Below are positions 22,100 to 42,600 of a stretch of 64,000 nucleotides of DNA, one piece after another. Source of the stretch: Klebsiella phage Sugarland. Numbering within the stretch: the stretch's first letter is position 1; each line of letters starts with the position of its first letter. The stretch lies in the sequence record NC_042093.1, one strand, 5' to 3'. The notes below the pieces were generated by a model. It did no database searches. It saw nothing but the letters and a program-made list of their open reading frames with translations, and had not been told where the DNA came from. Position numbers and translations under genes: made by a program.

Positions 22100-22162
22100 T
22101 GCGATCTCCTTAGAGGTCTACAGAGGGTCAAATTTCGACCATGTTTATCAATTTAGAATACC

Positions 22163-22191
22163 AGTATACCAAGTTTTGGCGTGGATTGCAA
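22163..22191 (-). promoter_or_regulatory. sigma70 promoter for phoH
   Basis: -35 TTGCAA, 17-bp spacer, -10 TATACT. Confidence 0.45.
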
Positions 22192-22357
22192 CTGAAATTT
22201 TCTAGGATGATATGGAGGACGGATCCTTTCCTTTATTCGCGCGATGCGCGGGCGCACACGAATAATATAAAATGAGGGAGATAAGCAAATAAAATTTTCC
22301 AGTTTTTATTGTTTTGATGATCCAGATCAAGTTACTGTTGATTATAATAAAATAAGG

Positions 22358-22386
22358 TTGACATGGCTGTGTCTATTTGATATAAT
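22358..22386 (+). promoter_or_regulatory. strong sigma70 promoter for the nrdD-sir2 operon
   Basis: TTGACA, 17-bp spacer, TATAAT, followed by GGAGG and an ATG at 22409. Confidence 0.6.
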
Positions 22387-22408
22387 ATATGCCTAACTGG
22401 AGGAATAT

Positions 22409-24238
22409 ATGAACGAATTAGACCTGATTGATAATATCTATAGTATCCTTGATAATGAGGGTGAAGAAGACCTTATGTTTAATAATGCTAATAAGGCAAG
22501 CGAGCAGTTTCCTACACAGAGGGACATGATAGCTGGAGAGGTTTCTAAATATGTGGTAGCACAGGAGCTTCCAGCATACCTATTGACGGCGCATAATAGA
22601 GGAGAGATACACATTCACGATATGGACTACCGCGCACAAGGGTATACTAACTGCTGCCTAGTGGATCTAGCGGGGATGTTTAAGAATGGAACTAAAATTG
22701 GTGGAGCAGAGATTGAAACTCCAAAATCTATCTCTACTGCAGCTGCGGTAACTGCCCAAGTTATTGCCCAGGTAAGCTCGTGTCAGTATGGGGGTACGTC
22801 TATCGATCGTATTGACGAGGTCTTTGCCCCGTATGTCCGTAAGTCCTACGATAAGCACTTAGCTATTGGCCAGCGTTGGCTGCACGATAGTAAGAAGGCA
22901 GCAGTGTATGCTACTGAGATGACAGAAAAAGAAGTATATGATGCGTGCCAGGGACTAGAGTACGAAGTTAATACACTATTCAACTCTAATGGTCAGCAGC
23001 CATTTGTGACATTTGGGTTTGGTCTAGGAGAATCCTGGGAGGCACGCATGTTGCAGAAAGCTATGCTGGAAGTTCGTATAAGAGGCCTGGGTGCTTCAGG
23101 GCATACTGCTGTATTTCCTAAACTTATTTTCGCAGTTAAGGAAGGACTCAATAAGTCCCCAAGTGATCCTAACTACGATATCAAACAGCTGGCGCTCATC
23201 TGCACTTCTAAGAGAATGTACCCGGATTACGTGAGCTATGAAAGAGTATCGGCTGTTACGGGCGATTTTAAGTTCCCTATGGGTTGTCGGTCTTTCCTTT
23301 CGGCTATTGAATCAGGGGAAACTGCTGGGCGCAATAACCTAGGAGTTGTATCCATTAACCTGCCGCTAGTTGCTGTAGAGTCTGAGGGATGCTTCGATAG
23401 GTTCTGGAAGTTGTTGGATGAATACATTGATAAAGCGATGGCTGCCCACGATTGGGCTATTGAGCGGTTGAAGCGTGTTCGTGCTAAACAGGCACCAATT
23501 CTCTATATGCACGGAGCTTTTGGGGTACGGTTGAAAGCCAATGATCTTGTATGGCCCATCTTTGAAGGCAGGGCATCAGTGTCTTTGGGATATATCGGTA
23601 TTAACGAGGTGATTGAGGTAATGTTTGAAGATACCGACCCTATGTCTCCACCTGCGGTTGAATTTGCAGTACGGGTTCTTAATCACATGAAAGACCGTTG
23701 CAACAAAAAAGCTGAGGAAACTAATCTAGGATTCAGTCTTTATGCTACTCCTAGCGAATCCTTATGCAATAGATTCAACACTAAAATTGCCGAACAGTAT
23801 CCGGAGTATGACTGGCTAACGGATAAAGGCTACCTGACTAATAGTCACCACCTGGATGTCCGTACAAAAGTTGCCCCTAACGTGAAGTTTGACTATGAAG
23901 CTAATTTTACTACCATCGCCAATGGGGGTAATATATCCTTTGTAGAACTTCCTGAGATGCGTAAGTTTATCTCTGCACTAGAGTGGGTTGTTGACTATGG
24001 ATTAAGTAAGTCCCACTACATAGGGGTCAACATTCCAGTTGATGAATGTGAGGAGTGCGGGTATTTAGGCGAATCCGTATCCGGAGAGCATGGTTTTGTA
24101 TGTCCCCAATGTGGGTCGGGGAATATCTCAGTTACCCGTCGTGTTTGTGGGTACTTAGGTAGTCCTGGTAGTAGACCCTTTAACCCTGGTAAGCAACAGG
24201 AAGTAATGCAAAGGGTCAAACACATGAATTTGAAATAA
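22409..24238 (+). CDS. nrdD: anaerobic ribonucleoside-triphosphate reductase (class III)
   Basis: C-terminal glycyl-radical motif RVCGYLG and zinc ribbon CEECGY...CPQCGS; 609 aa. Confidence 0.9.
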   Translation: MNELDLIDNIYSILDNEGEEDLMFNNANKASEQFPTQRDMIAGEVSKYVVAQELPAYLLTAHNRGEIHIHDMDYRAQGYTNCCLVDLAGMFKNGTKIGGAEIETPKSISTAAAVTAQVIAQVSSCQYGGTSIDRIDEVFAPYVRKSYDKHLAIGQRWLHDSKKAAVYATEMTEKEVYDACQGLEYEVNTLFNSNGQQPFVTFGFGLGESWEARMLQKAMLEVRIRGLGASGHTAVFPKLIFAVKEGLNKSPSDPNYDIKQLALICTSKRMYPDYVSYERVSAVTGDFKFPMGCRSFLSAIESGETAGRNNLGVVSINLPLVAVESEGCFDRFWKLLDEYIDKAMAAHDWAIERLKRVRAKQAPILYMHGAFGVRLKANDLVWPIFEGRASVSLGYIGINEVIEVMFEDTDPMSPPAVEFAVRVLNHMKDRCNKKAEETNLGFSLYATPSESLCNRFNTKIAEQYPEYDWLTDKGYLTNSHHLDVRTKVAPNVKFDYEANFTTIANGGNISFVELPEMRKFISALEWVVDYGLSKSHYIGVNIPVDECEECGYLGESVSGEHGFVCPQCGSGNISVTRRVCGYLGSPGSRPFNPGKQQEVMQRVKHMNLK

Positions 24239-24511: not shown

Positions 24512-25344
24512 TGCGTAGATTGATTATCGTAAGTGGTGCTGGATTGAGTGCTGATAGCGGAGTGCCAACGTTCCGTAAGGGTGCCATCACTCCCCTGTGG
24601 GATAAATACAAGCTAACCGAAGTATGCAACATTCAGGCATTCGATAAAGGGTTTCACTATCTGGACGACCCTATGCCTCCGTTAGAAGCCCTTTCTGAGG
24701 GATCTGATGATGAGCCTAGTCGCAACCTGTACGAGCTAACCCATGAGTTCTACAACATGCGGCGGCAGGAGCTGGGTACGGTGGAGCCTAACATTGCTCA
24801 CCTGAGAATTGCTGAGTGGTATGAGCGCTTCCCTGGTCAAGTCGTTAACTTTACTACTAACGTGGATGATCTGCTAGAGCGTGCTGGCATTCCCCATGAT
24901 GATGTGATCCATGCTCATGGCTACCTTACGGAGATAATGTATCGCCGAGGTAAGGATGTGATCGTGGAAGATATCGGGTATACTGCGGTTGATTACCGTA
25001 AGTATGAGTGGGTTAAGCCTGCGATTACGTTCTTCGGGGAAACCGCTCCGTGGTATATGGGGCAGATCAACCTGTTTGATACCTTGACAACCCAGGATCT
25101 GGTAATCGTTGTTGGTGCCAGTAACCAAGTAATCGATTTTAATTGGGAGCTATTTCCGGCCCATAGTCGAGGTACTAAAGTGTGGGTAGTAAACAACGGT
25201 ATTAACTACCTGGAGCAGAGTTTGTACGAAGAACGCGGGATCCCCGTTTGGTATGATACTGCTGCCAATGTATTTAGCAACAAACATTTCATAGGTCAAG
25301 TTGAGGCTTGGCTGGAGGAGAAAATTTATGTACCATCCCGATGA
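24511..25344 (+). CDS. Sir2-family NAD-dependent deacetylase / NADase-like protein lacking a zinc-ribbon module
   Basis: GAGLSADSGVPTFR, TTNVDDLLERAG and HAHG motifs; no Cx2C...Cx2C. Confidence 0.75.
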   Translation: MRRLIIVSGAGLSADSGVPTFRKGAITPLWDKYKLTEVCNIQAFDKGFHYLDDPMPPLEALSEGSDDEPSRNLYELTHEFYNMRRQELGTVEPNIAHLRIAEWYERFPGQVVNFTTNVDDLLERAGIPHDDVIHAHGYLTEIMYRRGKDVIVEDIGYTAVDYRKYEWVKPAITFFGETAPWYMGQINLFDTLTTQDLVIVVGASNQVIDFNWELFPAHSRGTKVWVVNNGINYLEQSLYEERGIPVWYDTAANVFSNKHFIGQVEAWLEEKIYVPSR

Positions 25345-25492
25345 TATCCTGTTATGGCCCAACGGTAGTTGGTGTTATCGCAGTGATGTACAAGATATGA
25401 GTCACCTATCGGACGACTATCAGGTTTTACGAGCGGACTCTGAGCAGTGGCACGAATTCATCCAAATGGGGGAAGAATATGCTGGTCAATGA
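25328..25492 (+). CDS. hypothetical protein (about 54 aa)
   Basis: Start adjusted to MYHPDD with RBS GGAGGAGAAAATTTATG. Confidence 0.4.
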   Translation: MYHPDDILLWPNGSWCYRSDVQDMSHLSDDYQVLRADSEQWHEFIQMGEEYAGQ

Positions 25493-25880
25493 AAAGGTTG
25501 TTAATCAAGGGGTTGGGCTAGTTCCCTGGGCTGAAATTCCTCTGGACGTAAAAGAGTCTCTTCTGGACCATCTTCGTGTGTGGTGCGATAATATGGAGGT
25601 CTACTTCGATTATGACAACATGCACCTGGGGCTATGGGTTCCTATGGACGAAGATCAAGATGAAGTCCTAGACTGGGGCGATCTGACTGAGATGGGGCTG
25701 GTATTTGCGCTAGGCTACGTGTGTCTGCTGCGTGAGTCCTATATCCCGGTTGGTGTTACAGGTGTTTCAGCAGGTATTTGGGTCGGACGTAATGAAGATT
25801 ATTATGCTCCGGAAAATATTAACGGTTGGATCCAGGTGCTGCGTCGCTTCGGTTTCCAAGTTGAAGGGTTAACTAAATGA
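25479..25880 (+). CDS. hypothetical protein, paralog A (133 aa)
   Basis: Shares WAEIP...DWGDLTEMGL...YAPE with the next ORF. Confidence 0.55.
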   Translation: MLVNEKVVNQGVGLVPWAEIPLDVKESLLDHLRVWCDNMEVYFDYDNMHLGLWVPMDEDQDEVLDWGDLTEMGLVFALGYVCLLRESYIPVGVTGVSAGIWVGRNEDYYAPENINGWIQVLRRFGFQVEGLTK

Positions 25881-26272
25881 GTATTCCTAAAATGGAACGT
25901 ATCTCCTGGGCGGATATCCCCAAGGAATTGATTGATGTAGCAGAGAATCTGCTGCGAGCCGCGTTGAGGGACGAGGAGCTTTGCTTCATCATCCAGCATG
26001 ACGTGTGTGTAGGCTTGTCCAAAGGCAGTTTGGCCCAGGATTACGAGATCCTCTTTGATTGGGATGACCTCTCGGACTTGGGGCTAATGGTTCTGGTGAA
26101 CAACGTTGTGTTCCACCCCTCTAATTTTGCAGCATTCCGTGAACCGGGGGCAGGTATTTCTCCGGGGTTCTTGGTAGCTGACGAGCCTTGGACGTATGCT
26201 CCAGAGGTTCTTCGTGAGGGCAAACAAAATGCCTCTTCTAACTCGATTAATATTATGGGTTGGAATGCCTAG
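25877..26272 (+). CDS. hypothetical protein, paralog B (131 aa), a tandem duplicate of the previous gene
   Basis: WADIP...DWDDLSDLGL...YAPE; 4-nt overlap with paralog A. Confidence 0.55.
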   Translation: MSIPKMERISWADIPKELIDVAENLLRAALRDEELCFIIQHDVCVGLSKGSLAQDYEILFDWDDLSDLGLMVLVNNVVFHPSNFAAFREPGAGISPGFLVADEPWTYAPEVLREGKQNASSNSINIMGWNA

Positions 26273-26283
26273 TTGAACACTTA

Positions 26284-26316
26284 GACCAGGGGATTATCCT
26301 CTGGTCTTTTCTATGC
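26284..26316 (+). terminator. rho-independent terminator ending the nrdD-sir2 operon
   Basis: GACCAGGGG-ATTATCC-TCTGGTC then TTTTCT. Confidence 0.6.
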
Positions 26317-26354
26317 TTAAACCCAGTTACCTACCACGTATTTAAATATTTTAC

Positions 26355-26383
26355 TTGCAATCTCGCCACGATTTTTATATAAT
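26355..26383 (+). promoter_or_regulatory. strong sigma70 promoter about 490 nt upstream of the next CDS
   Basis: TTGCAA, 17-bp spacer, TATAAT. Confidence 0.55.
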
Positions 26384-26389
26384 ATATTC

Positions 26390-26870
26390 ATAGGTTGAGA
26401 GAAATGATGTGAGTTACAAAACTGACATAATTCCTCTCATTCACTTCCGAGCATACAGAACAGTCCGGCTGCTACATGCTTGGTTGGGTTTGGCTTATTG
26501 GGAAATTGATTCCGAACGGAATTATAGATAATTGATCTAGAATGCGGGTAAGAGAGGTTGGCATCGCGAGGCTCTCAGATATTTGTTCGTTAGTCATGTG
26601 GAGCAAATAGCACCGCGGTCTGAAATGACCAAGAAGTGAAGCTGTAAGTAGCAACGTGCCTCTGCGCAATAGCGACGAATAGGGGTCAACCACATGGAGC
26701 TTAGCGGCGATTACATGCTGTGTGGGAGTTGTGCGAAGCGGCCAGTTCTAGCAATGAGGAAGTGACCACCCCTCCATCTATAAGGAAATTTGTTGAGTCA
26801 GTGGACTTTTAAGCTGTTCTATCCTTGATAGTTCGAGATCGCTTTATTCTTCAACATAGGAGAAAACGTA
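26390..26870 (+). ncRNA. approximately 480-nt promoter-driven untranslated region (long leader, ncRNA or candidate replication-origin region)
   Basis: No ORF over 20 codons with an RBS; balanced GC content; multiple hairpins. Confidence 0.35.
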
Positions 26871-29660
26871 ATGTTTTCTATTCTAGAAGGACACGCGGGT
26901 TTTTCCCGCGATCCCGCTTCCGGCAACTGGAAGGAAGTGAAAACAACTGATTACCTTTTTGCGAAGGAGTTTTCTAACGAGCATCCAGAAGGTAAACCAG
27001 CCTCAATGCCCTACAAATTTAACGTAGTGGATACGGTTGACCCCAAAAATCTTAATGAAGCGTATGAGCTGATGGTTCAGCTCACTCAAGATCCACATCT
27101 CGTAGCAGTACGAGGTACATGCTTAGTTGCAGAGAAGGCCGTGCGTCGTAAACGTACTAACTTCAAAATCGACCATAAGAGCAATATTATTGCTATGGAC
27201 GTCGATGGAATCTCTGATACCGGAGGATGCGGCAGGTTTGACATTGTGGGTATGGGACGTCATGTCATTAAGTTATTAAACAGCATCAGCGAGGACATGT
27301 TCCCGCTTAACGCAGGGTTTATTGCCCATGCGTCGTCTTCGGCTGGGATTAAGCCGGGGATTCGTATGCACATGCTATTAGAGAGTAATATTCCTGTTAC
27401 TCAGGGTCAGTTAAAGTTTCTATTTACGTCCCTCAATGATAGCTCTCGGCAGAAGTATGGTTTTGATATTGCCGACTTAGCTTATTATTCATCTGTACAG
27501 CTACACTATTTCGCTGACCCGATTTTTCGGGATCAGTTTACCGATCCGTTTAAAGCGGAGGGTAAGCCACGTCTGGTTAAAGTTAACGGTGCTAGGATTG
27601 AACTGCCCAATACTATGCCAGATTATGAAGCCACTCGCGGGGAGTTTAAAGAAGAGTTTCTATCTCTGCTCAATCAGATTAAAGGAAAGCGTGTAGCCTC
27701 TGAAAAAGTGGAACAAACCATTGCAGAGCTGGAAGAAGCAGAGGATGGTGTTTATCTGCGTATTATTCCTAAACTGTACCACAGAGCGCTGGAGGACGGT
27801 GTTGATTTCGCCTGGCTTGAGAAAGAGATTACCTCAGCTCTGTCCGATTATATCAACACGAAGGACAACTCCCGTAGTCTTCAGGATTATTTTAATAACG
27901 GGCGTAAGCAGGCGTTAAAAGCGTTTGTGAACAACTCTATGCGAGATATTCCTGAGTCTAATGTTAAAGGCGTTCCTGTGCACAAGTTGACCTCTGATAG
28001 CCCCGATGGGATGAACTATTTGAAGATCAACCGTCCACCACCGGAAGGTCATTTAACATTTATCAAGGCTTCCCTAGGTACTGGTAAAACCACCGCAGTG
28101 ACGAAGTGGCTAGAACGTGATCAGCTGAAAGGTAATTTCCTTGCAGTTACGAACACACGTGCCCTTGTTTCATCTAACGCCAAGAAGTTTGAAGCCGGAC
28201 AGTATGATAAGTCTGTAGATATGTTAAACTTCAAGCGCGGTGCCATTGATCGTATGTCTACTACTATTCACTCAATCCACAAGTTTAAAAACTTTGTTGG
28301 GCAGATCGATGTTATCTTTATCGATGAGTGCGATGCAGTCATGAATGATCTGTTATTCGCCCCAGTTGTTAAACAACGTCGTGAGTGTATCTCAGTTCTT
28401 CGTGAAATTCTGCTATCTGCAAAAGTAGTTATCCTGTCTGACGGGGATATCAGTGCAGAAACCATTGAGGCATATGGATCTCTCATAGATTTTGACAAGC
28501 CGGTCTCTTATTATAAACACCATCGTAAGATGCTCTCGGATGCTCAGGCGTATGAGTTCCCGGATGAATCCAGTATTTGGGTTGCTCTCCAAACGTCCCT
28601 AGAGATGGGGGAGAAATCTATTCTGGTATCCGACTGTGGGCCAGATGAGTTAAACGAGAAAGGCCTGACGCTAAGAAACAATACAGGTGCGATTGTTAAA
28701 GAGATTCACTCAAACTCTACCTCTGATATAGATATTCGTCGTATTTTGGATTATACAACGAATGAGTTAATTGAGCAGCAGATTGATTGCCTGCTGTGTA
28801 GTCCGTCAGTAACGAGCGGCGTTGACTTCAACTACTTCGATAACGTGTTTGTTATCACTCGTACCGCTAACCAGGCGCCGAACATGCGCTTCCAGGCAAT
28901 CAGGCGCGACCGAGGAGCTAAGAATATCTTCTATTTCATCGATAAGTCCACCAGCGGATTCTCTGCGGGTTCGGAGCAGTATAACATCGATGAGGGTTGG
29001 CTAGACTTAGCTCAGCAGCTGTATGTTAAACGTCGTGAACTAGAGTCCCGTAACTTTATCAGCACATTACGATACTATCTGCTAGATCAGGGGGCAACTA
29101 TCGATATCTTCAGTGAAAGCTGGGGCAAGATTGATAGCTCAGCCGCAGAGTATACTGCCGAGCGAGTTTCTGCTATTTTGAGCAGTACCCCAGATTGGTG
29201 TGCACCCCGTCATGCGGATGCATACGAAGCCAAGCTAATGCTGGTCAAGTATTTCCACCTGGACTCTATCAAGAGTATCACACAGGAACATGCGGAGATG
29301 TGGATTAGTAAGAAACCACACAAGCGGGCGGAGTTCTTCCATAAACTCCAAGATATATTCTGGAAGGATATTAAGAAGTGTTCTAACGTGACGATTAGTC
29401 CATTTATCGAAGCCCTGAAGAAACACAAGAAGGACTTCTTTATTAGGACAGGACAGTCTGCCAACCCTAAATATGCCCGTATGTACCTAACCCAAATGGG
29501 TATTAATAAGGAAATGGAAACGGAGCAGATCGTAGACTGGTATCGAACCTACTGCTCTATCGAGGGTATCTCTGTACCGTATGAGTTTATGACGGATGAG
29601 GAGAAGGCGCTGGCTGATGAAGCGCAAAACGAACTTGGAGTACGTAATGAGCAAGCGTGA
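26871..29660 (+). CDS. primase-polymerase (AEP-like N-terminus) fused to a P-loop NTPase/helicase, origin-binding-protein-like (929 aa)
   Basis: N-terminal NIIAMDVDG (hhDhD motif I), GFIAHASSSAG (motif II-like), GFDIADLAYY; central GTGKTT Walker A and VIFIDECDAV Walker B. Confidence 0.7.
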   Translation: MFSILEGHAGFSRDPASGNWKEVKTTDYLFAKEFSNEHPEGKPASMPYKFNVVDTVDPKNLNEAYELMVQLTQDPHLVAVRGTCLVAEKAVRRKRTNFKIDHKSNIIAMDVDGISDTGGCGRFDIVGMGRHVIKLLNSISEDMFPLNAGFIAHASSSAGIKPGIRMHMLLESNIPVTQGQLKFLFTSLNDSSRQKYGFDIADLAYYSSVQLHYFADPIFRDQFTDPFKAEGKPRLVKVNGARIELPNTMPDYEATRGEFKEEFLSLLNQIKGKRVASEKVEQTIAELEEAEDGVYLRIIPKLYHRALEDGVDFAWLEKEITSALSDYINTKDNSRSLQDYFNNGRKQALKAFVNNSMRDIPESNVKGVPVHKLTSDSPDGMNYLKINRPPPEGHLTFIKASLGTGKTTAVTKWLERDQLKGNFLAVTNTRALVSSNAKKFEAGQYDKSVDMLNFKRGAIDRMSTTIHSIHKFKNFVGQIDVIFIDECDAVMNDLLFAPVVKQRRECISVLREILLSAKVVILSDGDISAETIEAYGSLIDFDKPVSYYKHHRKMLSDAQAYEFPDESSIWVALQTSLEMGEKSILVSDCGPDELNEKGLTLRNNTGAIVKEIHSNSTSDIDIRRILDYTTNELIEQQIDCLLCSPSVTSGVDFNYFDNVFVITRTANQAPNMRFQAIRRDRGAKNIFYFIDKSTSGFSAGSEQYNIDEGWLDLAQQLYVKRRELESRNFISTLRYYLLDQGATIDIFSESWGKIDSSAAEYTAERVSAILSSTPDWCAPRHADAYEAKLMLVKYFHLDSIKSITQEHAEMWISKKPHKRAEFFHKLQDIFWKDIKKCSNVTISPFIEALKKHKKDFFIRTGQSANPKYARMYLTQMGINKEMETEQIVDWYRTYCSIEGISVPYEFMTDEEKALADEAQNELGVRNEQA

Positions 29661-29931
29661 TGCCCGCTGGGAAACAAGGAAGTTTCCCAAACGCGATACG
29701 AAAGCACGGAAAGCTAAAGAGATAGAATTGTGTAGAGTAATACCTATTCGCTTAGCACAGATGCCAAATATCTATGATTGGCTAGAGGCTCAGCGAAAGA
29801 CACGCCTTTCTATACGCATCAACATGGAACTAAACATGGGGTATAAGAGTCTATCTGAATTCATGCACGTTACTTTTGACCCTACGTTCTATGAAAATCG
29901 CGATTGCTTAGAAGCTAAATCTGTATTATAA
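29647..29931 (+). CDS. hypothetical protein (about 94 aa)
   Basis: Start adjusted to MSKRDAR; overlaps the end of the 929-aa gene by 14 nt. Confidence 0.4.
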   Translation: MSKRDARWETRKFPKRDTKARKAKEIELCRVIPIRLAQMPNIYDWLEAQRKTRLSIRINMELNMGYKSLSEFMHVTFDPTFYENRDCLEAKSVL

Positions 29932-29963
29932 TAGTTTCATAAATTCGAGAGAGGATAAAGAAC

Positions 29964-30659
29964 ATGGCAATCCGCAAAAAACTTCATGCGAATAGCATCC
30001 CGGACGAAAAGTTTAAGGAAGCGATTCAGTGGCTAGAAGATGGCAAGACCAAGAAAGGCGCTTGCGAAATCCTCGGAGTAGCATCCAACTCCACGATGGA
30101 GCGTTTGATTGAGGAATGGAAAGATAACCAGCGTGTTTCTGCTGAAATGCGTAAAAAGAAACGTGGTACTAAAATCGAAGGGGCTGAGCTGGCCAACGTT
30201 ATCGATTCGTATCTGTCCGGTGATAGTTTTGAGGCAATCGCCGAGCGTTTCTACCGTTCTGCAAATATGATCCGAATGGTTCTGTCTGCTCACGGTGCTC
30301 TGCTTCGTGTTAATGGTGAGGTTGACCCACTCTTTCCGCCTGCGATTCCAGAAGAATCAATGAAAGAGGTATTTGAAGTAGGCGAACACGTTTGGGTTCC
30401 AGGATACCAGTGTATCGGCGAAGTTAAAAAAGCTCTGGACAATCCGGTAGGCGCATATCGTGTTTACCTGCTATCCGAAGCCCGTCAGCAGTATGTTAAC
30501 TACATGTATTGGGATCTGGCGTCTGTTGAGCATCTGGTAGCACTTGGTGTTGATATCAAGTCTCTGGGATTCAAGTGGGGCAAAGAAGACGTAGCTGAAC
30601 TGGTTAATAACGCTGTTAAAGCAGCCCTGAAATTAGAGAAGAGAGGTAAAGGTGAGTAA
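29964..30659 (+). CDS. putative DNA-binding protein with helix-turn-helix region
   Basis: KKGACEILGVASNSTMERLIEEWK HTH-like segment; RBS GAGAGGATAAAGAACATG. Confidence 0.5.
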   Translation: MAIRKKLHANSIPDEKFKEAIQWLEDGKTKKGACEILGVASNSTMERLIEEWKDNQRVSAEMRKKKRGTKIEGAELANVIDSYLSGDSFEAIAERFYRSANMIRMVLSAHGALLRVNGEVDPLFPPAIPEESMKEVFEVGEHVWVPGYQCIGEVKKALDNPVGAYRVYLLSEARQQYVNYMYWDLASVEHLVALGVDIKSLGFKWGKEDVAELVNNAVKAALKLEKRGKGE

Positions 30660-30870
30660 ATATCAACTCTTGAACCTATTCCAGATTTATTCCGAAGGCG
30701 CTACAGCTATCCGGGATCTGCATTATGCAGTTCCTATGGACGAAGCGGAAGATAATGGCTGGCTTACCAAATACGATCGTGGTTTGCTGAAGATGTATCG
30801 TTTGTCCCCCAATGGTTTGGTAGCTGTTAACCAAATCCTAGAAAATTCTGTTTGCTTTGCAGCTCAGTAA
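30652..30870 (+). CDS. hypothetical protein (72 aa)
   Basis: ORF track; start overlaps the previous stop. Confidence 0.45.
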   Translation: MSKYQLLNLFQIYSEGATAIRDLHYAVPMDEAEDNGWLTKYDRGLLKMYRLSPNGLVAVNQILENSVCFAAQ

Positions 30871-30944
30871 CTTGTTATAATATTCTCATAGTTTGAAACA
30901 AAACTTAAAAACTCTTTTTAACAATAAATAAGGAAGTAATAAAT

Positions 30945-31349
30945 ATGTCTACTCCAACTCAATGGTCTCCTGAACTCGAAGCTGAACTGACTTCTGCCTA
31001 CGTCGCCAAAATCGAACTCTTCCCGGAAGATGAGCGTCCTGGTGTCTCTATGGAGATCGTAGCTGAGATCGCTAAAGAACACGGTGTTTCCCCGAACGGC
31101 CTTCGTATGAAGCTGTCCAAAGCTGGCGTATACGTCAAGAAAGAAGCTGGTAAGTCTACCGCTAAAACTGGTGGTGATGCCCCTAAAGCTGGTGGCCGTA
31201 CTTCTAAGTCTGATGCTCAGGCTGAACTGCGCGCTGCATTTAACGACGCTGGACTGGAAGATGGCTTCCTGGACGAATCGATCGTTGACAAACTGACCGG
31301 TAAAGCTGCCTCTCACCTGGCTGAAGCTATCCGTAAAATCACTAAATAA
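30945..31349 (+). CDS. small repeat-domain protein paralogous to the 34846..35604 product
   Basis: WSPELEAELTSAYVAKI...VAEIAKEHGVSPNGLRMKLSKAG aligns with WNEEITASLTAKANAL...ANIAAELAAETGKEVTARSVGSKLRKEG. Confidence 0.55.
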   Translation: MSTPTQWSPELEAELTSAYVAKIELFPEDERPGVSMEIVAEIAKEHGVSPNGLRMKLSKAGVYVKKEAGKSTAKTGGDAPKAGGRTSKSDAQAELRAAFNDAGLEDGFLDESIVDKLTGKAASHLAEAIRKITK

Positions 31350-31361
31350 GAGGGTATTGCA

Positions 31362-31658
31362 ATGAATAAAGCACAAGTCGTAGCTATCTGTGAGAAACAC
31401 GGTGAGTTTTGCATGCAATACACCAAACTGCGTACCAAGGGGGTAACTTACCTCTACGGTACGACTGAGTTCGATCCTAAGCAAGATAAATACCTTGCCG
31501 AGCGAATCGTCCGTGAAGGCCTGGAACCCGCTGACAAAGATCATATCCTGGTCTTTAGCCGCTCTAGCGATAAATTCCGCTATATTCCGATTGCGAATAT
31601 TAAGCGCATCACCAGCCTCAACCAAGAACTTGATCGAGCTACTCCAGTAGGTCGTTAA
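31362..31658 (+). CDS. hypothetical protein (98 aa)
   Basis: ORF track; RBS GAGGG. Confidence 0.5.
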   Translation: MNKAQVVAICEKHGEFCMQYTKLRTKGVTYLYGTTEFDPKQDKYLAERIVREGLEPADKDHILVFSRSSDKFRYIPIANIKRITSLNQELDRATPVGR

Positions 31659-31663
31659 GACGC

Positions 31664-31692
31664 AATCAGCCCCTTCGGGGGCTTTTTGTTTA
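31664..31692 (+). terminator. rho-independent terminator
   Basis: CAGCCCC-TTCG-GGGGCTG then TTTTTGTT. Confidence 0.65.
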
Positions 31693-31708
31693 TCTGAGAA
31701 CAATAAAA

Positions 31709-32011
31709 ATGAATCAAAACATTTGTCAGGATTACGAAGGACATTCGGAGGAACAATCCATTGTAGTATTTGAAGATCCAGGTAGGCAAATCCGTATGAC
31801 GGTATCCGAGTATCGAGGTAATTTATATCTAGGATTTAGGCTCTGGCTATTGGATATCCTAGATAATTGGTTTCCAACAAAATCCGGTTTTTCCTTTCCG
31901 TATACGCTAGAAACCACCTCATCTATGTTTCAAGCCTTTACGAAGATTTTAAGCAAGTCTGAGGTATTACATGAAGTGTACAAACACTCCCAAAACTCTG
32001 ACGAGGGATGA
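31709..32011 (+). CDS. hypothetical protein (100 aa)
   Basis: ORF track. Confidence 0.45.
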   Translation: MNQNICQDYEGHSEEQSIVVFEDPGRQIRMTVSEYRGNLYLGFRLWLLDILDNWFPTKSGFSFPYTLETTSSMFQAFTKILSKSEVLHEVYKHSQNSDEG

Positions 32012-32495
32012 AATCCTTCGTCATTTCACATACGTAGAGGCAGAAGGTAAACTGTACTACAATGCATTGGGAGAAGACCCTGCATACGATGCTAGAATGT
32101 CTGGTAAGGAGTGTGCGTCTATGGACAGCAAGGGATACATTCGAGCACATGTAAAGGGCGTAGCGTACCAAGTGCACAGAATTATCTTTTTCCTCCATAA
32201 TAACGAGTGGCCAGAAATAGTAGACCATAAAGACGGAGTGACGTGGAACAACTTTCATGAGAATCTGAGGAAAGCCACGTACTCCCAAAATGGCCAGAAT
32301 GCAAAACTGGCTAGCAATAACACTAGCGGGGTAAAGGGCGTAACGTGGAACTCCTCCAAAAATAAATGGATGGCTCGATGCTCTGTAAATGGCACACGAA
32401 AACACGTAGGGTACTTTGACTCCATATCCTCAGCAGAAGAGGCACTTGATTTGTTCAGAAAAGAACATCATGGGGAGTTTGCGAGAAAAAAGTAA
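31971..32495 (+). CDS. HNH homing endonuclease with AP2-type domain
   Basis: IVDHKDGVTWNNFHENLRKATYSQN HNH motif; AP2-like C-terminal domain. Paralog of the 17997..18488 product. Confidence 0.7.
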   Translation: MKCTNTPKTLTRDEILRHFTYVEAEGKLYYNALGEDPAYDARMSGKECASMDSKGYIRAHVKGVAYQVHRIIFFLHNNEWPEIVDHKDGVTWNNFHENLRKATYSQNGQNAKLASNNTSGVKGVTWNSSKNKWMARCSVNGTRKHVGYFDSISSAEEALDLFRKEHHGEFARKK

Positions 32496-32550
32496 TTGCT
32501 TAGTGTTTTAAACCTTGATATAATATTCTCATAGTTTGAAGGAGATCTTT

Positions 32551-32733
32551 ATGAAAGATCATGAAATTGCTCAGTTAGTCAATAAGCTGACCGAAGCTGC
32601 TAAGACGTATGCTCATACGCAGCAATTAAGAGCACACATGTCTAGAATTGTCAACGAGGCTTTACGCCATGAAAAGAATAATTATCGATGCCTACAGTGC
32701 TCCTCCCCTGAAATTCCAGGCCATGACGCTTGA
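32551..32733 (+). CDS. hypothetical protein (60 aa)
   Basis: RBS GAAGGAG. Confidence 0.4.
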   Translation: MKDHEIAQLVNKLTEAAKTYAHTQQLRAHMSRIVNEALRHEKNNYRCLQCSSPEIPGHDA

Positions 32734-32932
32734 GTGGGTAGAGGATAAGCAAAAGAAAACCCTACCCGGTTATGTATTTATCGGGGCATGGATTGAAAAC
32801 AACGTGACACTATGCGAAATGCTTAGCCCTAAATCGCTAGGCAGAACGGTAACAACTTTCCAAGCACTATGCGAACATTTTAATTGGGAAGGAAAGACCA
32901 AGAAGCTGTGCGAACACTACGAGGTTAAATAA
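32669..32932 (+). CDS. hypothetical protein (about 87 aa)
   Basis: Overlaps the previous ORF in another frame; start uncertain. Confidence 0.35.
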
Positions 32933-33894
32933 TGCAACACGTTAAAGAATTTATCAAACTGTGCCAAGACGCGTACTACAAAGGTATGTCAATCATCTCT
33001 GATGAAGAGTATGATGCCTTAATTCGTCGCTTTCCGCTAGAGGAAGAAATTGGCCCCAAAGGTGATGTACCTCATCTGTTCCGTATGTTTTCCTTGCAGA
33101 AAGTGTACCCAGGCCGCGGCGAAGAAGTACCCTTCCAGGGCATTGAAACGCCGAAGCTCGATGGCTGTGCTATTTCACTTCTGTATATTGACGGAAAGTT
33201 CGTTTCTGCGTTAACCCGCGGTAACGGCGTCTTAGGTAATGATGTAACTCATAATGTGAAGTTACTGAACATCCCTAAACGGATCTCCCAAAAGACTCCG
33301 GTGCAGATTACTGGTGAAGTACACATCACCAAAGAAGTTGAAAATATGCGTAACTTCGCCTCTGGTGCTATTAACCTGAAAGATTCTGGAGAGTTTCTCT
33401 CCCGTATTGCGGAAGGTGGCCTGATGTTTACGGCATATAGTATTCAGTGTGAAACCGGCAAAGTTGGCCTGACCGCTACTTTCTGTGGAGATATGCATAT
33501 CCTTCAGGGTGATGGTTTTGTTACCTGTCTGGATATCTCCAGCCGGGTAGATTGGTTCCCAACGGACGGCGTGGTGGTTCGTATGGACGGCAACAACCAA
33601 TTTAACGCAGCAGGTTGGACTAACAAGTTCCCGCGTGGTGCGTACGCCATCAAAGAAGATGATGAAGGCGAGGTTACTACGCTAGAGCGGGTAGAATGGC
33701 AAGTTGGGGCTTCTGGTAAGGTTACTCCTGTTGGATACTTCACCCCGGTAGTCATCGACGACGCTGTCATCTCAAAAGCTACCCTGAATAACGTTGGCTA
33801 TATCACTGCCCTTGACCTAGAAATCGGTTGCCAGATCCGCGTAATTCGTAGTGGTGGGGTCATCCCTCGCATCGTAGAACGTGTTTACGAGTAA
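32932..33894 (+). CDS. NAD-dependent DNA ligase, N-terminal adenylation (Ia/NTase/OB) part of a split enzyme
   Basis: KLDG active-site lysine motif ([17 protein letters not shown]); Ia-domain YYKG..ISDEEYD. Confidence 0.8.
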
Positions 33895-33939
33895 CACTTG
33901 ATTCAATAGATACACCGTGATGATTTTTTAAAGTAGTTA

Positions 33940-33968
33940 TTGACATTTTCATCGCCAGGGTGTATACT
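33940..33968 (+). promoter_or_regulatory. sigma70 promoter inside the spacer between the ligase halves
   Basis: TTGACA, 17-bp spacer, TATACT. Confidence 0.5.
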
Positions 33969-34034
33969 ATTATCATTCAGTTGAGGGAAAGAAATATTTG
34001 GTGAGAGACTGAGCTAAATTCTGAAAAATTTCGA

Positions 34035-34063
34035 TTGCTTAGTCCTGATTTTCTTGCTATAAT
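34035..34063 (+). promoter_or_regulatory. T5-type sigma70 promoter inside the spacer between the ligase halves
   Basis: TTGCTT, 17-bp spacer, TATAAT, upstream AAAAATTTCGA. Confidence 0.5.
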
Positions 34064-34093
34064 ATTTATATAAATTGATGAGGAAGAAAATCA

Positions 34094-34843
34094 ATGAAAA
34101 TTGAAATTCCACTGAATTGCCCCTCTTGTGGTTCGAAACTGGACTTAGTTAACGATCAGTTGTTCTGCCGTAACAAGTCTATGTGTCCAGCTCAAAGCAG
34201 TAAATTAATCGAGAACTTCTGCTCAAAGATGAAGTTAAAGGGCTTTGGCCCACAGACGATTGCTAAACTGGAAATCACGAAAGTTTCAGAACTCTTTTTC
34301 CTGACTAAAGAAGATTTAGTCAGAGCTGTAGGTGATAAAGTCGCCACGAAACTTGAGCTAGAGTTGGAAACTAAGCTGAGACAAGATGTTGACTTTGGTT
34401 CGGTTCTTGGATCTCTTAGTATCCCTCTTATCGGTGAAGTTGCTGCTAAGAAATTATCCCAGCTTTACAACGATTTCCAATCTGTGAAAGCGGAAGGTAA
34501 AGCTGGAGAACACTTAGCTTCGTGGAAGAATACACCGGCAGGACAGGACGTAATTAATCTACCATGGAAATTCAGTGGGGCGCGGGAAACTCAAGTTACC
34601 CCGGCGACTGAATCCAACGGAGTTGTTCTTTGCATTACTGGTAAGCTCAACGACTTCAAAAATCGTGCTGATGCTACCAAATATCTGGAAAGTCTTGGAT
34701 ACACGGTGAAAACCTCCGTTACTAAGGCTGTAAACTACTTAATCTGCGAAGATGAAACCAAGATCGGTTCTTCTTCATACAAAAAAGCACAATCGCTGGG
34801 CATCGAAGTCTTGACGATTAAAATTCTACTGGAGAATAAATAA
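34094..34843 (+). CDS. NAD-dependent DNA ligase, C-terminal part (zinc finger, HhH, BRCT)
   Basis: CPSCGSKLD...LFCRNKSMCPAQ zinc finger; HhH repeats; BRCT-like VVLCITGKL. Confidence 0.75.
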   Translation: MKIEIPLNCPSCGSKLDLVNDQLFCRNKSMCPAQSSKLIENFCSKMKLKGFGPQTIAKLEITKVSELFFLTKEDLVRAVGDKVATKLELELETKLRQDVDFGSVLGSLSIPLIGEVAAKKLSQLYNDFQSVKAEGKAGEHLASWKNTPAGQDVINLPWKFSGARETQVTPATESNGVVLCITGKLNDFKNRADATKYLESLGYTVKTSVTKAVNYLICEDETKIGSSSYKKAQSLGIEVLTIKILLENK

Positions 34844-34845
34844 AA

Positions 34846-35604
34846 ATGGCTAAATTAACCTGGAACGAAGAAATCACTGCATCCCTGACCGCTAAAGCTA
34901 ACGCCCTGAACGCGACCGTTATCTCTCAGGAAGCTGTTGCTAACATCGCTGCTGAACTGGCTGCTGAAACTGGTAAAGAAGTTACCGCTCGTTCGGTTGG
35001 TTCTAAACTGCGTAAAGAAGGCTTCGAAGTGCAGAAAGCATCCGACGTAACCAAATCTCCATGGACTCCGGGTCAGGAAGATGAGCTGGTTGCATTCCTG
35101 AACGATCATCCAGGTCAGTATACCTACGCTGAAATCGCTGCTGCTGTAGTTGGTGGTGCTTATACCGCTAAACAAGTACAGGGTAAAATCCTGAGCCTGG
35201 AACTGACTGCCGCTGTTAAGCCTACTGAAAAGGCCGCCGCTGTACGTAGCTTTAGCCCGGATCAGGAAGCTGCTTTCATTAACGCCGTTGCCAGTGGCGC
35301 GTCCGTTGAAGCAATCGCTGCTCAGTTTGAACGTACCGTTAAGCAGATCCGTGGTAAAGCTCTGAGCCTGCTGCGTGAAGGCCGTATCGAAGCTATGCCG
35401 GTTCAGGAAGTCTCTAATGCTAAGGCACGTGAAGACGTTCTGGAAGGTCTGAATATCGCTGATATGACCGTTGCTGAGATCGCAGAAGCAACTGGTAAAT
35501 CCGAGCGTGGTGTTAAGTCTATGCTGAGCCGCCGTGGTATCTCTGCTAAGGATCACGATGGTGTTGCTAAGCGCGCTAAACTTGACGCTAAATCCGCCAA
35601 GTAA
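34846..35604 (+). CDS. abundant DNA-binding-type repeat protein (T5 D5-like), four internal repeats
   Basis: Four copies of an approximately 45-aa unit (..AxIAAExGKxxRxVxxKLxxxG..); strongly optimised codon usage. Confidence 0.55.
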   Translation: MAKLTWNEEITASLTAKANALNATVISQEAVANIAAELAAETGKEVTARSVGSKLRKEGFEVQKASDVTKSPWTPGQEDELVAFLNDHPGQYTYAEIAAAVVGGAYTAKQVQGKILSLELTAAVKPTEKAAAVRSFSPDQEAAFINAVASGASVEAIAAQFERTVKQIRGKALSLLREGRIEAMPVQEVSNAKAREDVLEGLNIADMTVAEIAEATGKSERGVKSMLSRRGISAKDHDGVAKRAKLDAKSAK

Positions 35605-35615
35605 TTGATTTGACC

Positions 35616-35655
35616 TGAGGGGAGAGGAATTTTGTTCCTCTCCCCTTTTTCGTTT
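35616..35655 (+). terminator. rho-independent terminator
   Basis: GAGGGGAGAGGAA-TTTT-GTTCCTCTCCCC then TTTTTCG. Confidence 0.65.
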
Positions 35656-35688
35656 AAGTAGACGCTAACGCGGCGTAGAGAGTATCTT

Positions 35689-37167
35689 ATGTATAACGTC
35701 CAAGCAGTAGTTTTGAAAATGCTCCTAGCCTCCGATCAAAAGCAGGTGGCCCTAGAGACATTCTCTAGACTGCGCAAAGATCACTTCAATGACGCATTTA
35801 CCGCGATCTACCAAGCTGTCCAGAATTATTACAAAAAGCATAACGGAATGCCTTCGTTAGATGCTCTGATGCTAGAGTCTAACAGAAACGCAAGGTTGTC
35901 TCAAGCACTAACTGTTTTAGCAAACACTCAGATTCCAGACGTTGACATATCGCATGCGATTCATGTCCTAGAGTCGGAATACACACAGGATCTATTCCTG
36001 AATCTGCTAGAAACTGATGTGTTGCAGGATATTACCATACTGGATCAGGGAGAATTACTTGATCGAGTAGCGGCTCTGCACATGAAGCTAGAGGAACGAG
36101 TAACAACGACTGGTAAGGTCTTCAACGCCGATACTATGCGTGTTTTCAAGAGAAAAGAAGACTCCATGTTAAATCTTATCTCTCTCGGCATCTCAAACGA
36201 ATTTGATGCTCAACTTGGCGGAATTGCCAGAAAAGAAACACTGCTACTCGGTGGATGGCGTGGTACAGGTAAATCAATCATCTGTTCTAACATTCAAGTA
36301 GCCCAGTATTACAACGGGGATATCGCCCCATATTTCTCCATCGAAATGCCAGAGAATGAGGTCTTTAGACGTAACCTAGCCATTATGGCCGGTGTTTCAG
36401 CTAAGGCTATGCGCAATGACTCCTTACAAGGTATTGAACTCAACAAACTTGCGAAGACTCGTGCAAAAATGTTCGAAGGCGGTCTGGAAGTATATAACGA
36501 TTTTGTATCACGTTATACGCTCAACGAGATGAGTGACTTCCATGATATGGAGACTATGCTAATGCAGGAAAGACCCCTGCACACTCCGATGATCATCGTA
36601 TATGATCCGGAGCTTAGTACAGCAACTATTGATGTTGAACTGACTAAGTTAACCTCCAAGTATGGGGATAAGGTAACAATCGCCCTGCTAGACTATATCA
36701 ACCAGGTACGTTTGCCGGATACAAAGACATTAGATATGTATGATTGGAAGCAGCAGATGGTTGTCTCCTCTACGTTCAAGTCTACGTGCCAAAAGCATAA
36801 CGTTGCTGGTGTAGCTCCTTACCAGATTGACCAACAGGGTAACGCCCGTATGGCAAGAGGTATTCTCGATTCCTGTGATATGGCTGCAAATCTAAATGCT
36901 GCTAAACAGAACGAGGGGCATGACGGTGCAATCAAGTTTGACTTCGTAAAAACTCGTAACTCCGAGGGTATGACATTCATGCCGAAGATCAACTGGAACT
37001 CATTACGTATGGATCAGACTTCTGATCTTAAACTAGAGGACATTCGTCAGATGGAAGCAGAGTTTGTTATCCCACTTGAAAGCGACAAACCGAAAGACAA
37101 ACCAAAAAGGAAAAAGGCTTCGGATGAGGATACTAATCCCACCGGAGAATCCTCAAGAGACTTATGA
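35689..37167 (+). CDS. DnaB-like replicative helicase
   Basis: Walker A GGWRGTGKS; RecA-like C-terminal domain; 492 aa. Confidence 0.8.
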   Translation: MYNVQAVVLKMLLASDQKQVALETFSRLRKDHFNDAFTAIYQAVQNYYKKHNGMPSLDALMLESNRNARLSQALTVLANTQIPDVDISHAIHVLESEYTQDLFLNLLETDVLQDITILDQGELLDRVAALHMKLEERVTTTGKVFNADTMRVFKRKEDSMLNLISLGISNEFDAQLGGIARKETLLLGGWRGTGKSIICSNIQVAQYYNGDIAPYFSIEMPENEVFRRNLAIMAGVSAKAMRNDSLQGIELNKLAKTRAKMFEGGLEVYNDFVSRYTLNEMSDFHDMETMLMQERPLHTPMIIVYDPELSTATIDVELTKLTSKYGDKVTIALLDYINQVRLPDTKTLDMYDWKQQMVVSSTFKSTCQKHNVAGVAPYQIDQQGNARMARGILDSCDMAANLNAAKQNEGHDGAIKFDFVKTRNSEGMTFMPKINWNSLRMDQTSDLKLEDIRQMEAEFVIPLESDKPKDKPKRKKASDEDTNPTGESSRDL

Positions 37168-38048: not shown

Positions 38049-38054
38049 TATAAT
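38026..38054 (+). promoter_or_regulatory. sigma70 promoter for the DNA polymerase gene
   Basis: TTGCCG, 17-bp spacer, TATAAT. Confidence 0.45.
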
Positions 38055-38115
38055 AATTGGGTAAGTTTGAGAAGAAACACTGACGTTTTACTTGCTTACC
38101 TAATAGGAGAAATCA

Positions 38116-40686: not shown

Positions 40687-40777
40687 CTTTAGCTTACCAG
40701 TATATGCTTTAAGGGCTTATGATGTACTCTTCCAAGAGGGGGAGTACATTGTTATCCAGACGAGATTTACAAGGTAT

Positions 40778-41176
40778 GTGCTGGACAACCCAAGCCTTCC
40801 TGGGACATTCTCTCAGCGAAGGCTTTTTCTTTATGGTGAGCGGGAAAATTTACCTTACAAGCTCTATCCATTAAAGAAACAGTTCAAGTACTTATCTCAA
40901 ATAATAAATTCTGGACTAAAGCATTTCATCGACTCCACAGGTAAGATAGTAACATGGAAGCCTACAACTTACTATAACATTATCACGGAACGCGTTAGAG
41001 GATCAACTAGAATCTTCAACGGAAAGTACCAGTGTTATGTCAAGAACGTTCCATATCCTTTCTTACTTAGTGAACCTGCCAACTATATCTCGTACGCGTT
41101 GGTTCGCGGTTCACCAGTTATTTTTGATACGCACGAAGAGGAGCCAGAAACTCCTAGACTTAGAGTTAAGATATGA
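40778..41176 (+). CDS. hypothetical protein (about 133 aa, GTG start inferred)
   Basis: The listed ORF 40394..41176 overlaps the polymerase gene; no in-frame ATG after the polymerase stop, so the start is uncertain. Confidence 0.35.
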   Translation: MLDNPSLPGTFSQRRLFLYGERENLPYKLYPLKKQFKYLSQIINSGLKHFIDSTGKIVTWKPTTYYNIITERVRGSTRIFNGKYQCYVKNVPYPFLLSEPANYISYALVRGSPVIFDTHEEEPETPRLRVKI

Positions 41177-42537: not shown

Positions 42538-42600
42538 ATTTATATTGAATTGAGAGACAGATTTACAAAGAAGAGTTAAGCAAATAGTTAAAAATTTCAG

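Follow-up and report, generated by a model that had tools for sequence, protein, structure and literature searches.

The locus upstream of the helicase gene

The analysed stretch, hereafter the window, covers 64,000 nucleotides (nt) of Klebsiella phage Sugarland (NC_042093.1). The element in question is the long untranslated leader (26390-26870, + strand) that precedes the gene of a UL9/D2-type helicase. Over the studied region, the identity to Klebsiella phage Spivey (MK630230.3), a T5-like Sugarlandvirus of the Demerecviridae, is 100%, and 78 Klebsiella phages carry the same stretch at an identity of at least 97.8%. In the Spivey record, a terminator is annotated just past gp137, the next feature is the ribosome-binding site (RBS) and coding sequence of gp138, and about 600 nt between them are left unannotated. 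The gp137 gene ends at 26272 and the helicase gene starts with the ATG at 26871, preceded by AGGAG. Apart from the tRNA cluster (22 tRNAs at 55-8950), this 598-nt gap is the longest run in the window without an open reading frame (ORF) of at least 75 amino acids (aa).

An intrinsic terminator, composed of a hairpin and a T-run, is located at 26283-26307 on the + strand (inverted repeat I1). It has 11 pairs, 6 of them GC, a loop of 3 and the tail TTTCTATGCT. It closes the upstream operon with the Sir2 and DUF7415 genes and isolates the leader promoter. A terminator hairpin was observed at the equivalent place in the T5-type, L033, L034 and Kamaji lineages, where L numbers designate collected loci. 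The consensus sigma-70 promoter TTGCAA-17-TATAAT, which the first-pass annotation had placed at 26355-26383, is indeed present on the + strand with 10 of 12 matches and a predicted start around 26390 (A). In 26000-45900, just one other site combines a perfect TATAAT at a 17-nt spacing with 10/12 matches. Promoter-like sites overall show no enrichment (9 observed, 10.3 expected). Every one of the 43 distinct homologous leaders has a TTGC(N)-17/18-TATAAT site at the equivalent position, and the T5 record NC_005859 annotates the leader promoter at 58999-59073. The promoter is credible because of this conserved position and the T5 annotation.

From the promoter to the ATG, 487 nt contain no conserved ORF, in agreement with the empty run of approximately 490 nt noticed at first. 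The leader was also correctly described as not AT-rich. Its GC content is 0.47-0.49 across 26450-26899, compared with 0.34-0.40 in other spacers, and the promoter region alone is AT-rich (0.39-0.40). The GC skew of the leader is +0.25, corresponding to a G-rich transcript. No + strand terminator was found between 26384 and 31668, and the transcription unit continues for about 5.3 kb to a strong terminator at 31668-31683. The leader promoter is the sole good promoter for the helicase gene in Spivey. Since this promoter lies upstream and no terminator stands before the helicase ATG, the RNA must be transcribed as the 5' portion of the helicase mRNA.

The gene behind the leader, gp138 (26871-29660, + strand), encodes a 929-aa UL9/D2-type superfamily 2 (SF2) helicase, named 'putative replication origin binding protein' and homologous to T5.108. 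It belongs to the PHROGs family phrog_3712 and weakly matches solved chains of the herpesvirus origin-binding protein (OBP). The earlier label 'primase-helicase' did not hold. The sole Pfam domain of gp138 is Herpes_ori_bp (PF02399) at aa 395-534, and the protein matches the D2 helicase of T5 (PMC3632103). The T5 protein with the same domain placement is the biochemically characterised 'D2' bipolar helicase, a proposed replication initiator, and the herpes OBP domain of the D2 described by Wong et al. in 2013 is at aa 392-532 (PMC3632103). This placement fits T5.108, the gene behind the leader, for D2. There is a naming conflict in RefSeq NC_005859, which gives 'D2 helicase' to T5.111 (235 aa).

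A conserved fold on the transcribed strand

Forty-eight loci were gathered from IMG/VR, metagenomes and GenBank, and they contain 43 distinct leaders. A MAFFT alignment of 39 distinct leaders (A3) was used for consensus folding with RNAalifold, and the resulting fold has 108 pairs. As controls, each 3' partner was shifted by 1-3 columns, and 500 column shuffles were made. Standard pairs fill 92.4% of the cells of the 39 leaders, compared with 37-47% in the slid controls. The number of pairs changed on both sides is 55 against 24-32, that of cells with a both-sided change is 401 against 75-108, and the covariation score is 0.320 against 0.06-0.09. None of the 500 shuffles matched the observed values. 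The cell counts are inflated by shared ancestry because the 39 sequences represent just seven or eight lineages; the pair-level counts and the slid controls are independent of this inflation. The helices named P3, P5 and PA4 below are formed by differing sequences in nine lineage representatives. The check for covariation among T5-like genomes, proposed by the first-pass annotation, was thereby clearly positive. At the paired positions, 691 G.U and 68 A.C combinations were counted (approximately 10:1). Therefore, the structure is on the + strand, the one transcribed by the promoter, and not in duplex DNA.

A small ORF conserved in the homologues had been named in advance as an observation that would speak against an untranslated transcript. 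Such an ORF was looked for on either strand of the leader, and none is shared among the relatives. Stop codons number 5-21 per frame in all frames of both strands in nine lineages. The position, frame and length of ORFs differ even among close relatives, and the frame of the conserved P2 block differs between T5 and Spivey. Folded alone, the Spivey sequence has an unremarkable energy (z = -1.04 for the + strand and -0.67 for the - strand). The many stem-loops reported at first could not be judged on that basis, and the structure becomes visible only in the comparison across relatives. The recurring AGCAA(T/C)G motifs are a matter of chance, with 2 exact copies in the leader and 15 in the window against 15.7 expected. 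The compensatory and G.U-tolerant changes on the + strand indicate an RNA-level element, neither a protein gene nor a double-stranded DNA site. In the best explanation, the stretch encodes a large structured RNA that is absent from existing catalogues and has a core of about 440 nt.

The full untranslated leader of the helicase mRNA is encoded at 26390-26870 and its structured core at approximately 26393-26831; all elements described here are on the + strand. The 5'-terminal long hairpin P1 (26393-26442) begins with UGAGAG (26396-26401) paired to CUCUCA (26434-26439), followed by three more segments. As helix 1 of the consensus it has 19 pairs, of which 8 changed on both sides, and 89.5% of its cells are paired. 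The conserved hairpin P2 (26444-26487; helices 2-4) has an 8-bp stem of CCGAGCAU (26447-54) and AUGCUUGG (26476-83). In its upper part, AG (26457-8) pairs with CU (26472-3) across a bulged AA, and CAGU (26461-4) pairs with GCUG (26468-71). P2 carries the most conserved block of the element, ACAGAACAGUCCGGCUGC; it shows a G-C to A-U change at alignment columns 176/192 and one invariant U.G.

The core is closed by the long-range helix P3 (helices 5-7), the strands of which are about 300 nt apart. Its 5' strand at 26491-26512 reads UGGCUUA ... AUUGAUUC and its 3' strand at 26795-26816 reads GAGUCAGU ... UAAGCUG. The duplex has an energy of -17.5 kcal/mol and about 16 pairs, split 6+2+8 in Spivey. 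In T5, the EPS7-type, L033, L034, L077 and phiR2-01, P3 consists of 20-28 pairs with small interruptions and is made of unrelated sequences. Inside P3, the inner domain is closed by P5. The 5' strand of P5 (26534-26542) has a conserved GAUC followed by the covarying CUAGAA (26537-26542), and its 3' strand is UUCUAG (26746-26751). P5 (helix 8) has 9 pairs, 7 of them changed on both sides, and is paired in 97.7% of cells. Its lineage variants are CUGCG/CGCAG, CUACA/UGUAG, CUGUG/CACAG, CUGUA/UACAG, CCAUA/UAUGG and CUAGAA/UUCUAG.

The central hairpins at 26552-26686 are variable among lineages. They are GAGAG...CUCUC (26552-76), UAUUUGUUC...GAGCAAAUA (26580-26609), GGUC...GACC (26617-30) and GCCUCUG-CGC...GCG-UAGGGGU (26658-86), the last of which is common with Yersinia phage phiR2-01. 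This segment aligns poorly, so covariation is not established in it. In the PA4 domain (26690-26725), CCACAUGG (26690-97) pairs with CUGUGUGG (26718-25) and encloses the invariant hairpin GCUUAGCGGC (26699-26708) and a 3' internal loop. All 8 outer pairs of PA4 (helices 15 and 16) changed on both sides, and CUUAGCGG inside it is invariant in 39 of 39 leaders. The helix occurs as AUAGAAUC/GGUUCUAU, GCAAAUC/GGAUUUGU, GUGCGGGU/ACCCUGCAC, AUACGGG/CUCGUAU, UUGAGG/CCUCAA and CCACAUGG/CUGUGUGG. The next hairpin, AUGAGG/CCUCCAU (26754-26777), presents the conserved 11-nt loop AAGUGACCACC (26760-26770), with the consensus RRNUNRCCAYC in all but the T5 type. Its stem covaries (GUGG/CCAC, GGGG/CCCC, GAGG/CCUC and AUAUGA/UCAUAU). 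The CCACC loop is suspected to make a loop-loop contact with GGUGG/GUGG. Directly after P3 comes the terminal hairpin CUAUC-CUU-GAUAG (26819-26831; helix 19), with the variants CUAUUC/GAAUAG, CUUUCC/GGAAAG and UACUAU/AUAGUA. It has no U-run behind it and is not called a terminator. From there to the start codon extends an A/U-rich linker of about 40 nt with the Shine-Dalgarno sequence and the ATG. In the ribosome-binding region (26847-26873), a local hairpin of UUCUUC (26847-52) and GGAGAA (26859-64) covers the Shine-Dalgarno sequence, and the unpaired probability of the GGAG bases is 0.0 in Spivey. This accessibility varies, and the pairing partner changes from lineage to lineage, so that the local hairpin stands outside the conserved fold. 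In L033 the partner of the Shine-Dalgarno sequence is the 5' arm of the terminal hairpin, and in T5 the sequence is largely open.

The two genes directly upstream of the terminator, gp136 (25479-25880) and gp137 (25877-26272), are DUF7415/phrog_2502 paralogues and homologues of T5.106 and T5.107. Their products are candidate partners of the leader RNA.

Distribution of the leader among T5-like phages

The arrangement of terminator, promoter, long leader and helicase gene is common to T5 and all of the enterobacterial T5-like lineages examined (43 distinct leaders). In T5, the order is T5.107, an annotated terminator, an annotated promoter, 470 empty nt and T5.108. Long unannotated leaders precede the helicase gene in Proteus, Serratia, Vibrio and Aeromonas relatives, too. 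The gap is 710 nt in Yersinia phage phiR2-01, 820 nt in Proteus phage PL1 and 430 nt in Serratia phage Kamaji, and the leader is 640 to more than 1000 nt in the Vibrio phages Brizo, JSF12 and D153 and about 1.5-1.8 kb in Aeromonas phage AhSzw-1. The place directly 5' of the helicase gene is kept family-wide, even with unrecognisable sequence. Between Spivey and T5, the identity of the leader is about 49% and that of the helicase protein is 73%. Short near-invariant blocks stand in the leader, and the intervening sequence varies in a paired manner. Each T5-like contig has a single copy of the most conserved block, ATACRGAACAGTNNGGCTGC, always at the leader locus. At least two interchangeable versions of the central domain occur, a T5/Spivey/phiR2-01-like and an EPS7-like one; blastn matched 26632-26684 to phiR2-01 with 79% identity.

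Some lineages carry additions at this junction. Four leaders (L003:2204-2300, L016, L026 and L038) contain an additional module of about 100 nt that forms a stem-loop (AGUGAAGCUGACAAGGGAUUUACGG...GUUUUUUCUU) and is flanked by UUUUUCUU repeats. It sits between P1 and P2, after the equivalent of window position 26442, and is missing from close relatives of its T5- and EPS7-like carriers. This module is a mobile mini-insertion or, alternatively, a variable expansion segment. In the EPS7-like loci L008 and L038, an extra small ORF (start MVKLKSGIRVNFQLNK...) is placed between the T5.107 homologue and the terminator, a further sign of a recombination-prone module boundary at the junction. A second near-consensus promoter, TTGACA-18-TATAAT, lies 40 nt before the helicase start in Proteus phages (L005:2434-2463, L036 and L037), and another, TTGATG-17-TATAAT, lies 71 nt before it at L033:2405-2433. 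These second promoters are downstream of the structured element or overlap it. In these lineages, a helicase mRNA that lacks the long leader can arise.

Covariance models were built from P2 (R1) and from the PA4 domain (R2). With R1, T5 reaches 73 bits and L077 reaches 40 bits; this model finds the enterobacterial T5-type and L077 leaders only and gave no match in distant genera. R2 matches the Proteus phage leader L005 at 2077-2120, at the right place and on the right strand, with 16.5 bits and an E value of about 0.02 under a rough calibration. The local fold of this match has a nested architecture as in PA4. In the leader of Aeromonas phage AhSzw-1, two UUAGCGG hairpins were seen with an R2 score below significance. 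An nhmmer search with the 39-leader profile gave no match in the Proteus, Serratia, Vibrio and Aeromonas loci. RNAduplex runs on whole leader halves, made for P3-like stalks in distant leaders, returned meaningless full-length duplexes (z about 0). A strict hairpin descriptor for the family search was discarded, as it missed true members and gave 1.85 matches per 64 kb of shuffled sequence. One RNA family is claimed to cover the Markadamsvirinae-like phages and Sugarlandvirus, and probably Novosibvirus.

The Vibrio and Aeromonas leaders (L081:1-1041, L082:1660-2371, L083:1700-2428 and L084:491-2308) are 640 to about 1800 nt in length and have no long ORFs. That of JSF12 is purine-rich with 50% GC. 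The Vibrio leaders share conserved blocks of their own, for example GUGACUAACCNACC and CGUAGAGA, with no detectable similarity to the T5-type RNA. Each of these Vibrio and Aeromonas leaders is probably itself a large structured RNA. Only a positional analogy to the T5-type RNA is claimed for the Vibrio, Aeromonas and Serratia leaders.

Catalogued RNAs did not account for the element. Rfam 15 gave no match inside the gap when 25000-28000 was searched at E<=10, no match in the leaders of seven homologous loci at E<=1, and only tRNAs in the whole window at gathering scores. These negatives include RNase P RNA, transfer-messenger RNA (tmRNA), group I/II introns, riboswitches, T-box, 6S, GOLLD, ROOL, OLE and HEARO. 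ARAGORN found neither tRNA nor tmRNA in 25000-28000. The T5 leader had no blastn match in 5,426 E. coli genomes, nor did the Spivey leader in 72,556 plasmids, and a protein-anchored scan of bacterial genomes found none. A pattern scan of bacterial genomes with ACRGAACAGTNNGGCTGCY returned more than 120 scattered matches across unrelated phyla, which were read as chance because 16 specified bases were compared with 596 billion bases. Elsewhere in the window, just past the tRNA cluster, 11328-11825 is another run of 498 nt without an ORF of at least 75 aa; its GC content is 0.46, and it has no Rfam match at gathering thresholds. In the literature that could be searched, neither a description of the leader RNA nor a sequence-level T5 origin was found; subscription journals were mostly uncovered, so a prior description is possible.

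Possible roles of the leader RNA

Three roles had been proposed by the first-pass annotation, namely a long structured leader controlling the initiator, a stable non-coding RNA and a transcription-activated replication origin. Their common premise, a transcribed non-coding element acting via RNA structure, is strongly supported by the covariation; sequence analysis cannot decide among the three. We lean, at less than even confidence, to a large structured leader RNA acting in cis on the expression or processing of the initiator helicase. The action in cis is inferred because the position by this gene is the sole feature kept family-wide and because the leader promoter is the only promoter of the helicase gene in most lineages. 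As is usual for riboswitches and attenuators, the structured domain stands directly upstream of the gene, co-transcribed and in the same orientation across the relatives. The nascent RNA would fold co-transcriptionally into P1, P2 and the core closed by the long-range P3, and would serve as a cis platform setting the amount and timing of the initiator helicase. The likeliest route would be a cut in the long P3 duplex, whose length in several lineages would suit RNase III. A substrate of this enzyme is expected to offer about 20 bp or more of nearly uninterrupted duplex RNA. Such processing would detach the core, and the helicase mRNA would keep a short leader only, much as happens with lambda N. 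A phage protein binding the invariant loops (GCUUAGCGGC, the AA-bulged hairpin and the CCACC loop) may contribute as well.

Known systems resemble this arrangement in part. RNase III stalks of rRNA precursors, T7 early mRNA and the lambda N leader are likewise duplexes of about two helical turns that flank a folded RNA or lie in a leader, and in the lambda N leader the processing alters the translation of the downstream gene. In contrast to them, P3 is interrupted in Spivey and has no sequence relation to them, and its cleavage is a proposal. The leaders of IncFII repA and IncI-alpha repZ and the operators of T4 genes 32 and 43 also put covarying structure, placed for control, in the 5' untranslated region of a replication-protein mRNA. 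However, the T4 operators are 40-100 nt and directly involve the RBS, and the plasmid leaders involve the RBS and need an antisense RNA and a leader peptide. The T5-type fold exceeds 400 nt, has no antisense promoter and ends 40-60 nt before the RBS.

Several observations weigh against control in cis. The RBS itself is 40-60 nt past the conserved fold, and no conserved anti-Shine-Dalgarno partner was found in the leader, the partner columns differing in each of eight lineages. No intrinsic terminator was found inside the leader, and no conserved expression platform of the riboswitch or attenuator type was seen. Cis-regulatory leaders of bacteria and phages are usually shorter than 300 nt, and the element is 330 to more than 1000 nt across the family. 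Purely cis control would be bypassed by the second promoter of the Proteus phages and L033. P3 is weaker and interrupted in Spivey, and data on the transcript, its processing or its binding were not found in the searchable literature.

Two alternatives give the folded RNA a task beyond its own mRNA. That it is either a component of replication initiation (defining the origin, priming by an R-loop or assembling the D2/OBP helicase) or a 300-nt RNA excised by RNase III with a biochemical activity of its own is, taken together, a possibility that we consider rather doubtful. Taken by itself, an origin transcript is unlikely. The RNA, or the displaced + strand DNA with the same sequence, would start T5-type replication beside the initiator gene. 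Either the folded transcript would form a lasting R-loop and prime the leading strand from its 3' end or from an RNase H cut, as with ColE1 RNA II, or the D2/OBP helicase would be recruited for loading. Replication origins are often within or beside initiator genes, and here a strong early promoter and a G-rich non-coding transcript of about 0.5 kb (skew +0.25) adjoin the gene of a candidate initiator helicase. ColE1 RNA II is a pre-primer of about 550 nt, the conserved folding of which is required for hybrid formation, so that a similar origin role would explain the covarying secondary structure. The leader resembles ColE1 RNA II, and more loosely the transcripts of T4 oriF/oriG and the T7 origins, in its strong host-polymerase promoter, non-coding transcript of about 500 nt and conserved stem-loops; ColE1 RNA II also shares with it the replication-control region of the replicon and a G-rich RNA strand. 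The leader sits at 48.6% of the length of the T5 map and at 52% on that of Spivey, and the first T5 origin was reportedly seen near the middle of the genome by electron microscopy (Bourguignon, 1976). T5 encodes the UvsW-like helicase D10, and the UvsW of T4 regulates origins via R-loop unwinding (PMC5180179), which favours an origin. So does a 2026 preprint, in which bidirectional replication from two origins was inferred in the T5-like phage Bas33, its text giving no coordinates. On the other hand, unlike ColE1 RNA II, the leader transcript runs straight into a protein gene and has no known RNase H site or DNA start, and its 3' end is not tied to any DNA start site. No minus-strand promoter-like site, which an antisense RNA I-type copy control would need, was found at 26390-26870. 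Unlike T4 origins, the leader has no AT-rich unwinding element downstream of the promoter (GC 0.47-0.49 from 26450). It contains three weak two-copy direct repeats only, with no inverted repeat besides the terminator and neither iterons nor repeated boxes; its G content is not in G-clusters, and no sequence or Rfam similarity to the ColE1, T4 or T7 transcripts was found. A more AT-rich region also lies 4 kb upstream. This region, 22100-22550, has a GC content of 0.34-0.37, the lowest nearby, and precedes the anaerobic ribonucleotide reductase gene; its T5 equivalent is a divergent-promoter region. It is a candidate DNA unwinding element of a more classical appearance than the leader.

A stable RNA acting in trans is also improbable as matters stand. 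In this reading, the core enclosed by the P3 strands (about 300 nt in Spivey) would be excised and act at another site, be it as a ribozyme, as the scaffold of a ribonucleoprotein or as a decoy for a host factor or a defence system, and the adjacency to the helicase gene would reflect shared early timing only. Its size, number of helices and strictly conserved loops are closer to the large 'ornate' non-coding RNAs than to regulators. Like GOLLD, ROOL, OLE, HEARO and raiA, it is several hundred nt long, with many covarying helices, invariant loop or junction blocks and a function not obvious from context; GOLLD and ROOL are phage-associated as well. Ribosomal RNAs are excised by RNase III at a long duplex of flanking sequences, and P3 would be a duplex of this kind. 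Two lineages have the second helicase promoter downstream of the element, and modules were gained or lost (the 100-nt insert of four leaders) and swapped between lineages, as in mosaic RNA genes. The two DUF7415 genes just upstream carry the label 'RNA-binding protein' in the Spivey record, but this label found no support for gp137 in Pfam or PHROGs. The ornate RNAs, moreover, are free-standing genes, often near tRNAs, whereas the T5-type RNA is fixed in the 5' leader of one gene, solely directly 5' of the helicase, and is confined to T5-like phages. It has no terminator or other defined 3' end, and no Rfam match or host-sequence similarity hints at mimicry. Processive antitermination, in which the leader would modify RNA polymerase like the HK022 put RNA or the Bacillus EAR element for read-through of the replication-gene operon, is very improbable. 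The element does open a transcription unit after a terminator, with about 5.3 kb to the next strong one, and is cis by position. However, no strong internal + strand terminator precedes 31668, the downstream genes have their own promoters, elements of this type are generally 70-120 nt, and no sequence or Rfam similarity was found. That the stretch is a double-stranded DNA element, a decayed gene or a set of small unannotated proteins, with an RNA fold without function, is scarcely credible. The adjoining gene is annotated as an origin-binding protein, several records call small ORFs in the gap, and a 73-aa ORF is on the minus strand of Spivey. Nevertheless, compensatory changes in helices with strands up to 300 nt apart and a 10:1 excess of G.U over A.C would be unexpected in coding sequence or in sites on duplex DNA, repeats are lacking, and the ORFs vary in place, frame and length even among close relatives. 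The called ORFs are GTG-initiated 'hypothetical proteins' of 40 and 30 aa at 26409-26531 and 26720-26812 in Sugarlandvirus GenBank records (e.g. OR896848.1 CDS0030 and CDS0029). They are not conserved in other genera and, judging from this, are probably spurious. Such records also mislabel nearby genes as 'U3 small nucleolar RNA-associated protein 25', 'tail tube protein' and 'DNA primase C'.

T5 has been under study since the 1940s. Its initiator-type helicase gene alone carries a half-kilobase leader, which we regard as a large structured leader RNA of a new family. Large RNAs of bacteria and phages seldom have so much conserved structure, and those with a solved function are ribozymes, ribonucleoprotein scaffolds or sophisticated regulators. 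The leader RNA is short enough to probe, and its carriers are genetically tractable, including T5, the BASEL phages and Klebsiella therapy candidates. Dozens of GenBank records place spurious small proteins inside the leader, and the therapeutic Klebsiella, Salmonella and E. coli phages of the T5-like family all carry this RNA. If the origin reading is true, the leader would locate the T5 origin. If the RNA is a replication component or an excised RNA, a classical model phage would hold a large functional RNA of a new class.

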